In this document: positions 44,041 through 44,647 of the stretch, in pieces | How the letters are laid out: each line of letters starts with the position of its first letter | How positions within the stretch are numbered: position 1 is the first letter of the stretch | Assembly (NCBI RefSeq): GCF_050320075.1 | Contig: NZ_CP190018.1 | From: Escherichia coli | Lineage (GTDB): Bacteria; Pseudomonadota; Gammaproteobacteria; Enterobacterales; Enterobacteriaceae | DNA length: 64,000 bases | Direction: 5' to 3' (one strand) | Notes under the pieces: model-generated | Seen by the model: the letters and a program-made list of their open reading frames with translations, nothing else | The model's database searches: none | Told to the model about the DNA's origin: nothing | Program-made: the position numbers and the translations under genes

Positions 44041-44647
44041 TTAAATAATGGCATTCCTTTTTAGTATTTCTTGTAACGTTGGTATCGGACATACAGCATC
44101 AGCAATCGCACTGATATTCGCGGCATTATCTTGAAACCATTCATGCCCCGGTCCCCATATGCGCATAACGCAGAGATAAGGGTAGCTGATCGCCAAACGC
44201 ATAAGGTTCAGCAGTGAGCTACGAATTCAACCAGATATAAAACGATTTTCGATATTCAATAACATTCTTCTTTAACTGTTCGGGTGCGTCAGGAGCCCAA
44301 CGCTCAGGGTAATCGGCGAAAGTGAATGTTGGATAGACATTAGCAACCAGCCAGACCAATAGCCGTTGAAACTGCTGACGTTCGGCGCGCCCAACCGGTG
44401 GCGCAAGGTCCGGGCGACGATCGAGAACCATCAATGCAATCGCCGCTGTCTCCGTCATAATCTCGTCATTTTCCAGCGCCAGTGTCGGAATCTGACACAA
44501 CGGGTTCAGGGTTTTCAATAACTCGCGTGAGGTTCCCTCGTGGTCAAAACCACTGACATCAACGAACTGATAAGGAATATCAGCCAGTGTTAGCATCAGC
44601 TCACTGATTGTAGAGCCCCATCCGGGTACGCCATACACCTTAATCAT
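44041..44647 (-). pseudogene. yncG: Glutathione S-transferase homologue with premature amber stop and downstream frameshift
   Basis: N-terminal GST domain (MIKVYGVPGWGSTISELMLTLADIPYQ) ends at TAG after 142 codons; the GST C-terminal region (WGPGHEWFQDNAANISAIADAVCPIPTLQEILKRNAII) continues downstream in a different frame. Confidence 0.7.

Follow-up and report, generated by a model that had tools for sequence, protein, structure and literature searches.

When a core gene lies broken where it borders an Rhs island, the question arises of how it died: did it decay in place, or did it acquire its broken end together with the island? The gene is yncG of E. coli, and in the window (the whole 64,000-nt stretch of DNA analyzed) it occupies 44041..44647 on the minus strand, 607 nt as compared to 618 nt and 205 aa for intact alleles. 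RefSeq/PGAP places a pseudogene feature at the same coordinates in a genome identical to the window, E. coli CFSAN061763, where the locus (CA897_RS12350) is labeled 'frameshifted; internal stop'. This annotation agrees with the extent of the pseudogene given in an earlier note on this DNA, 44041-44647, and, together with alignment to intact alleles, bears out its diagnosis, a premature TAG followed by a frameshift. The pseudogene is already catalogued in public annotation; what is added here is the probable order of its two lesions and the place of its broken 3′ end as part of a recombining Rhs-island haplotype. Taken as a whole, the evidence is best explained if the window yncG is a non-functional remnant in a 3′-recombinant Rhs-edge allele, a reading in which we place high confidence.

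The yncG reading frame opens with the ATG at 44647, its product starts MIKVYGVPGWGSTISELMLTLADIPYQF, and it runs for 142 sense codons to a TAG at 44221..44219; this residual 5′ frame (44219..44647, minus strand) is seen in the ORF listing and recognized by Pfam. Residues 2-79 match GST_N_2 at 34.3 bits (cut-off 25), GST_N_3 at 30.2 (cut-off 22) and GST_N at 23.7 (cut-off 20.9), and the 142-codon ORF comprises the thioredoxin-like N-terminal domain of a glutathione S-transferase (GST; residues ~2-79) plus some 60 residues from the start of the helical domain. The earlier note had the TAG end the N-terminal domain: the stop does come after 142 codons, but the domain itself ends at about residue 79 by Pfam. 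Its other reading of the layout, GST C-terminal helices continuing downstream in another frame, agrees with what is seen here: the peptide WGPGHEWFQDNAANISAIADAVC... is encoded 3′ of the TAG, out of frame, up to the native TAA at 44043..44041. A 53-aa ORF in the ORF listing (44202..44041, minus strand; …YLCVMRIWGPGHEWFQDNAANISAIADAVCPIPTLQEILKRNAII) that ends at the same TAA is the C-terminal remnant of yncG; it has no Pfam match on its own, and GST_C models stay below their cut-offs even for intact K-12 YncG. A complete in-frame helical C-terminal domain is absent from the window allele: codon 142 is the last one translated, and what follows is frame-shifted, with T156-L-V-D159 gone. Putting back the CAG and the 11 missing nucleotides yields the 205-aa full-length frame.

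The two lesions were mapped against the intact 618-nt yncG alleles of K-12, B1.H1.1 and PT62. Alignment with K-12 yncG, which the earlier note had proposed as a check, locates the nonsense mutation in codon 143; it also shows that 11 nt, net, have been lost at 44184-44178. At codon 143 (44219..44221, minus strand), an amber codon replaces Gln143 (CAG>TAG) through a coding-strand C>T change at window position 44221; all intact alleles and the four genomes assigned the deletion without the TAG have C at this site. The deletion junctions span 44178..44184 (minus strand) in the alignment and in a hand re-alignment. MAFFT opens a single 11-nt gap between 44184|44183, at the cost of two extra adjacent substitutions (TG>CC). 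By hand, the window is obtained exactly from a PT62-type allele if two pieces are dropped, one A of CTAACC that adjoins 44183 and the 10 nt GGTGGACTGT at the junction 44179|44178 (PT62 ...CAGCTAACCCTGGTGGACTGTTATC... vs. window ...CAGCTACCCTTATC...). The 11-nt loss is thus most parsimoniously explained by two neighboring deletions, of 1 nt and 10 nt, with zero substitutions, and a single 11-nt event, which needs two substitutions, is disfavored.

Under either alignment, the net 11-nt loss hits codons L155-C160, T156-L-V-D159 included, and shifts the frame. When intact YncG is aligned to the structure 1pmt, T156-L-V-D159 falls opposite T-V-A-D of Proteus mirabilis GST B1-1, a position that we take to be the Ser/Thr-x-x-Asp capping motif, which is conserved where helix α6 begins and is needed for folding. 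The TAG ends translation 12 codons ahead of the deletion; the deletion alone loses everything from residue ~155, and strains that have only the deletion are predicted to make a product of ~168 aa, native to residue ~155 and followed by a short out-of-frame tail.

How widespread is this allele? A megablast search of 5,426 complete E. coli genomes with a 901-nt query (yncG plus flanks) matches yncG in 4,620 of them, mostly annotated as an intact 'glutathione S-transferase family protein'; 4,482 records cover at least 80% of the query, and the K-12 match has 94.7% identity over 84% of it. At least 99% identity over the 901 nt is found in 158 records, and over the 3′ 221 nt that span both lesions in 141 of the 5,426 genomes. 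The exact 52-mer with the TAG is present in 136 genomes, and the 22-kb surroundings (window 34000-56000) recur at ~100% identity in 139. The carriers come from humans, dogs, poultry, gulls, rivers, wastewater and food, from several continents and from many laboratories. MRSN346647 and Ecol_545 both contain the identical 22 kb; the former is listed as ST38 (PMC8454413), and the latter is described as closely matching an outbreak strain of ST38, phylogroup D (bioRxiv 10.1101/850628). The lineage in which the TAG and the deletion are fixed numbers ~136-141 complete genomes, with ST38 strains among them.

This distribution bears on the simplest alternative, that the true yncG is intact and the stop and the frameshift are errors of sequencing or assembly. 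Such errors may exist at this locus: 23CRST032 has a differently frameshifted yncG (2654-3179 of the extracted locus) with frameshifted neighbors, which resembles an assembly error in that genome, and for this reason it is not counted here as an independent yncG frameshift. Nothing in it is specific to the window, however, where the TAG recurs in 136 and the deletion in ~141 independently assembled complete genomes, and where the lesions are not homopolymer miscounts: one is a base substitution, the other a loss of 10-11 nt in non-repetitive sequence. The read support that the earlier note had wanted checked is given indirectly, by the recurrence of the sequence in about 140 independent complete assemblies. 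An artefact is hardly credible.

Genome searches also suggest an order for the two hits. When a 'repaired' yncG query is run against the same 5,426 genomes, the top matches, NRZ14408, isolate 362, LT599825 and GMF054, have the deletion and one mismatch fewer. NRZ14408 and isolate 362, on inspection, have CAG at codon 143 and are annotated 'frameshifted' only; LT599825 and GMF054, which equal them in score and in match length (228 nt), probably combine the deletion with CAG as well. Judged from set sizes, the TAG set (136 genomes) appears nested in the deletion set (~141). Parsimony and these set sizes are most simply accommodated if the frameshifting deletion came first and the TAG arose later, in a gene already dead; the order of the lesions in time is probably the reverse of their order along the gene. 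The minority allele, CAG with the deletion, could also be a recombinant rather than an intermediate, because, on the core side, no polymorphic site lies closer to the recombination breakpoint than the TAG position. Among the 5,426 complete genomes, the 'repaired' query finds no intact allele with the 3′ substitutions of the pseudogene; the closest intact allele, of the PT62 type, still differs at 10-11 sites.

The same genomes speak to a reading in which YncG is still made at full length, by amber read-through combined with ribosomal frameshifting. Two separate recoding events would be required, the T-L-V-D residues could not be recovered after the 11-nt loss, and the occurrence of the deletion without the TAG in four genomes, and of neither lesion in thousands, is a pattern of mutation rather than of a conserved recoding signal. 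With nothing counted in its favor, recoding has a vanishingly small chance of being right.

Where, then, do the substitutions that accompany the lesions lie? Relative to four intact alleles, 8-10 substitutions are unique to the pseudogene haplotype; the final 202 nt of yncG contain all of them, the first 405 nt none. Against an even spread, this clustering has a binomial P of 1.5e-4 to 1.7e-5. The conserved 240-nt non-coding flank 3′ of yncG (43801..44040, minus strand), which shares its divergent haplotype with the 3′ third of the gene, has 7 more unique changes. In the coding part, 2 synonymous changes stand against 6-7 non-synonymous ones (L136F, E153D, T167I, Q191P, K194T, V198I and, under the MAFFT alignment, C160P), whereas pairs of intact alleles have synonymous:non-synonymous ratios of 8:4, 14:6 and 13:4 in the same segment (~70% synonymous). 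The contrast gives a Fisher P of 0.01-0.17 depending on the allele pair, with few sites and with recombination as a confounder; it suggests relaxed constraint on the 3′ haplotype, at borderline significance.

Mostly non-synonymous 3′ changes are what a dead gene would accumulate, and the apparent nesting of the TAG carriers among the deletion carriers would likewise fit in-place decay, i.e., a single clone in which the lesions and the 3′ substitutions were all inherited vertically after the first hit, without recombination. In-place decay, however, should affect the whole gene, and here every one of the 8-10 unique substitutions is in the last third (P <= 1.5e-4), while a strain with an intact yncG matches the window exactly or almost exactly in the 5′ part and the upstream spacer. 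The comparison with NRZ14408 is likewise hard to accommodate: codon 143 separates a stretch with 38 SNPs from 3.7 kb with none, and the near-identity then extends across the island. Decay following inactivation is rejected as the main cause of the 3′ clustering: the excess does not stop at the end of the gene but extends into the non-coding sequence downstream, and not even synonymous changes are seen in the 5′ part. We consider vertical decay of this kind very unlikely.

The untouched 5′ part could instead be taken to mean that the 142-residue product is a functional truncated thioredoxin-like protein kept by selection: its start codon, upstream region and GST N-terminal domain are unchanged. 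The invariance includes synonymous sites and the non-coding spacer, however, which points to haplotype origin and not to purifying selection. Purifying selection on the N-terminal fragment is accordingly rejected, on the same two features of the 5′ part and the non-coding flank that tell against decay. The ORF, moreover, stops within the helical domain, so that the segment aligning with the second half of solved GSTs is gone, and yncG is missing or broken in other strains. Stable folding would not be expected of a GST N-terminal domain that has only part of the C-terminal domain beside it. A selected truncated protein is thus an extremely improbable reading; most likely, judging by its predicted sequence, the window yncG product does nothing.

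Recombination at the island edge remains the preferred source of the 3′ haplotype, and it can be followed beyond the gene. Rhs locus 6, between yncG and pptA, has yncG as its named flank in a survey of rhs evolution (PMC2935791), and sequence comparison marks the 3′ flank of yncG as a probable common boundary of island insertion. In the window, a haplotype block of ~11 kb (32960..44220, approximate and unstranded) has only 5 SNPs relative to NRZ14408, as compared to flanks that differ by 1-3.5%; NRZ14408 and isolate 362 share the same differences, so that the second background in this comparison is one only. One end of the block falls within yncG, either at codon 143 or immediately 3′ of it: over 40520-44220 (3,701 nt), a base-by-base comparison of the window and NRZ14408 finds zero differences, whereas 44221-47747 (5′ yncG, ansP and yncE) has 38 SNPs, ~1.1%. 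In the nar-yddE-nhoA flank, the two differ by up to 38 SNPs per kb.

The block holds an alkyl/aryl-sulfatase gene (33047-35023) and a MASE5-GGDEF gene (35118-36167, plus strand), both of which lie between pptA and the Rhs element; a partial, frameshifted ISAs1 (H-rpt) transposase pseudogene (36242-36792, minus strand); a small pentapeptide-repeat gene (37378-37863) and its neighbor, the RHS core gene (37860-42071); a second ISAs1 (H-rpt) transposase pseudogene with an internal stop (42493-43629, minus strand), which is the first gene of the Rhs island and adjoins yncG; and the deletion-bearing 3′ end of yncG. The pentapeptide-repeat and RHS core genes are framed by the two ISAs1 pseudogenes. 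Near-identity of the whole block in two backgrounds indicates that the Rhs island would have been exchanged en bloc, by recombination.

The core side of the junction has its own counterpart. B1.H1.1, whose AnsP and YncE protein accessions equal those of the window lineage, differs from the window at 0 of 273 sites upstream of yncG and 2 of 405 sites in its 5′ part, and at 33 of 202 in the 3′ third; it pairs a window-type core side with an intact yncG and a PAAR/VgrG island. The window yncG would therefore be a mosaic, since its core-side 5′ part matches B1.H1.1 and its 3′ part belongs to the island block. Homologous recombination at the island edge would join a core-side 5′ yncG to an island-side 3′ end that has the deletion, and the broken 3′ end would move together with the Rhs island. 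In its strongest form, this model would have the loss of yncG imported: an ~11-kb Rhs/ISAs1 island haplotype recombines into unrelated backgrounds with a crossover in yncG and kills the recipient gene, the ST38-type amber being added later. We put this form forward tentatively, giving it somewhat less than an even chance.

Does the loss of yncG belong to a wider decay of the region? The earlier note had seen a pattern of decay across the window that took in dosC, bdm, yddG and H-rpt. The status of the genes was read from the annotation of CFSAN061763, which is collinear with the window and 100.0% identical to it over 34000-56000. Four pseudogenes are annotated: yncG, the two ISAs1 (H-rpt) copies, and a leucine-rich-repeat fragment, a partial pseudogene (19430-19717, plus strand) just upstream of a full-length leucine-rich-repeat gene (20161-21414). 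The pattern thus holds for yncG and the H-rpt copies but not for the rest: bdm (6992-7207; 216 nt, 71 aa) and yddG (16429-17310; 882 nt, 293 aa) are full length and annotated as intact proteins in the collinear genome. What the note called dosC is presumably the 35118-36167 gene, the only GGDEF gene, also annotated intact; a truncated dosC is rejected for this 349-aa protein, in which the MASE5 and GGDEF domains are both complete. The window also has two IS200/IS605-family tnpA genes (10953-11411, minus strand; 50111-50569, plus strand); the copy that adjoins yddM is present in NRZ14408 as well.

What the cell forgoes with yncG is the function of YncG, whatever that function is; this consequence would follow from the mechanism proposed above. 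YncG is a beta-class-like GST homologue. It is described as a putative GST that had no glutathione (GSH) activity in a cell-free test, and its overexpression in K-12 raised the H2O2 MIC five-fold (PMC8228696). The gene is evidently dispensable, if megablast absences and one outright loss are taken as the guide: 806 of the 5,426 genomes lack a megablast-level match to the 901-nt query, and in DETEC-P61, an IS1-adjacent deletion (3104-3860 of the extracted locus) takes yncG through part of nhoA.

A dead yncG is of little weight alone: it is flagged by RefSeq throughout the lineage, and the gene is poorly characterized and dispensable. The TAG and the 11-nt deletion are nevertheless clean markers of the lineage, which includes ST38, a reported carrier of OXA-48-like carbapenemase and extended-spectrum β-lactamase (ESBL) genes. 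Because overexpressed YncG increased tolerance to H2O2 (PMC8228696), yncG-null strains offer a natural background for oxidative-stress tests. The locus also illustrates how a core gene bordering an Rhs island can serve as a recombination junction; a gene in this position can come to have a broken end common to divergent backgrounds, along with the island itself.

Comparison with known systems places the allele at three distances. The most remote are the beta-class GSTs: the best solved-structure matches of intact YncG are P. mirabilis GST B1-1 (1pmt/2pmt; E = 1.4e-13) and E. coli Gst (1a0f; 1.2e-11), and the alignments extend over nearly the whole length, as between distant relatives, whereas in the window allele the helical domain is missing its second half. 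In a single phmmer alignment, the beta-class active-site Cys10 (1pmt) is not found in K-12 YncG, which has Gly11 opposite (W10-G11-S12), a result to be read with caution; this replacement may be linked to the reported lack of GSH activity. Next come the intact yncG genes, orthologous by position: the order ansP–yncG–island is the same in the window, K-12, B1.H1.1 and PT62. K-12 yncG encodes a 205-aa putative GST and, as in the window, has ansP divergent upstream and an Rhs locus downstream; the two alleles have the same GST N-terminal domain matches and differ at 7 sites in the first 405 nt. The window, in contrast, has the amber at Gln143, the net 11-nt deletion and 25 differing sites of 202 in the 3′ third, and it has an ISAs1 pseudogene 3′ of yncG where K-12 has yncH. 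Homology to K-12 extends precisely to the stop codon of yncG and no further (K-12 yncG, 3154-3771 in the extracted locus), with yncH next there, and homology to B1.H1.1 and PT62 runs 240 nt past yncG and stops at 43801, though each island differs. The closest relatives share the lesions in full or in part: CFSAN061763 CA897_RS12350 and its equivalents in ~140 complete genomes are the same allele as that of the window, with no difference, while yncG of NRZ14408 and isolate 362 has CAG at codon 143 and three other 5′ changes, next to ansP and yncE that are ~1% different. NRZ14408 and isolate 362 nonetheless have the 11-nt loss, the 3′ end and the downstream ISAs1 pseudogene of the window, with 0 differences over 3.7 kb, and the RHS core protein of NRZ14408 has the same accession as that of the window.
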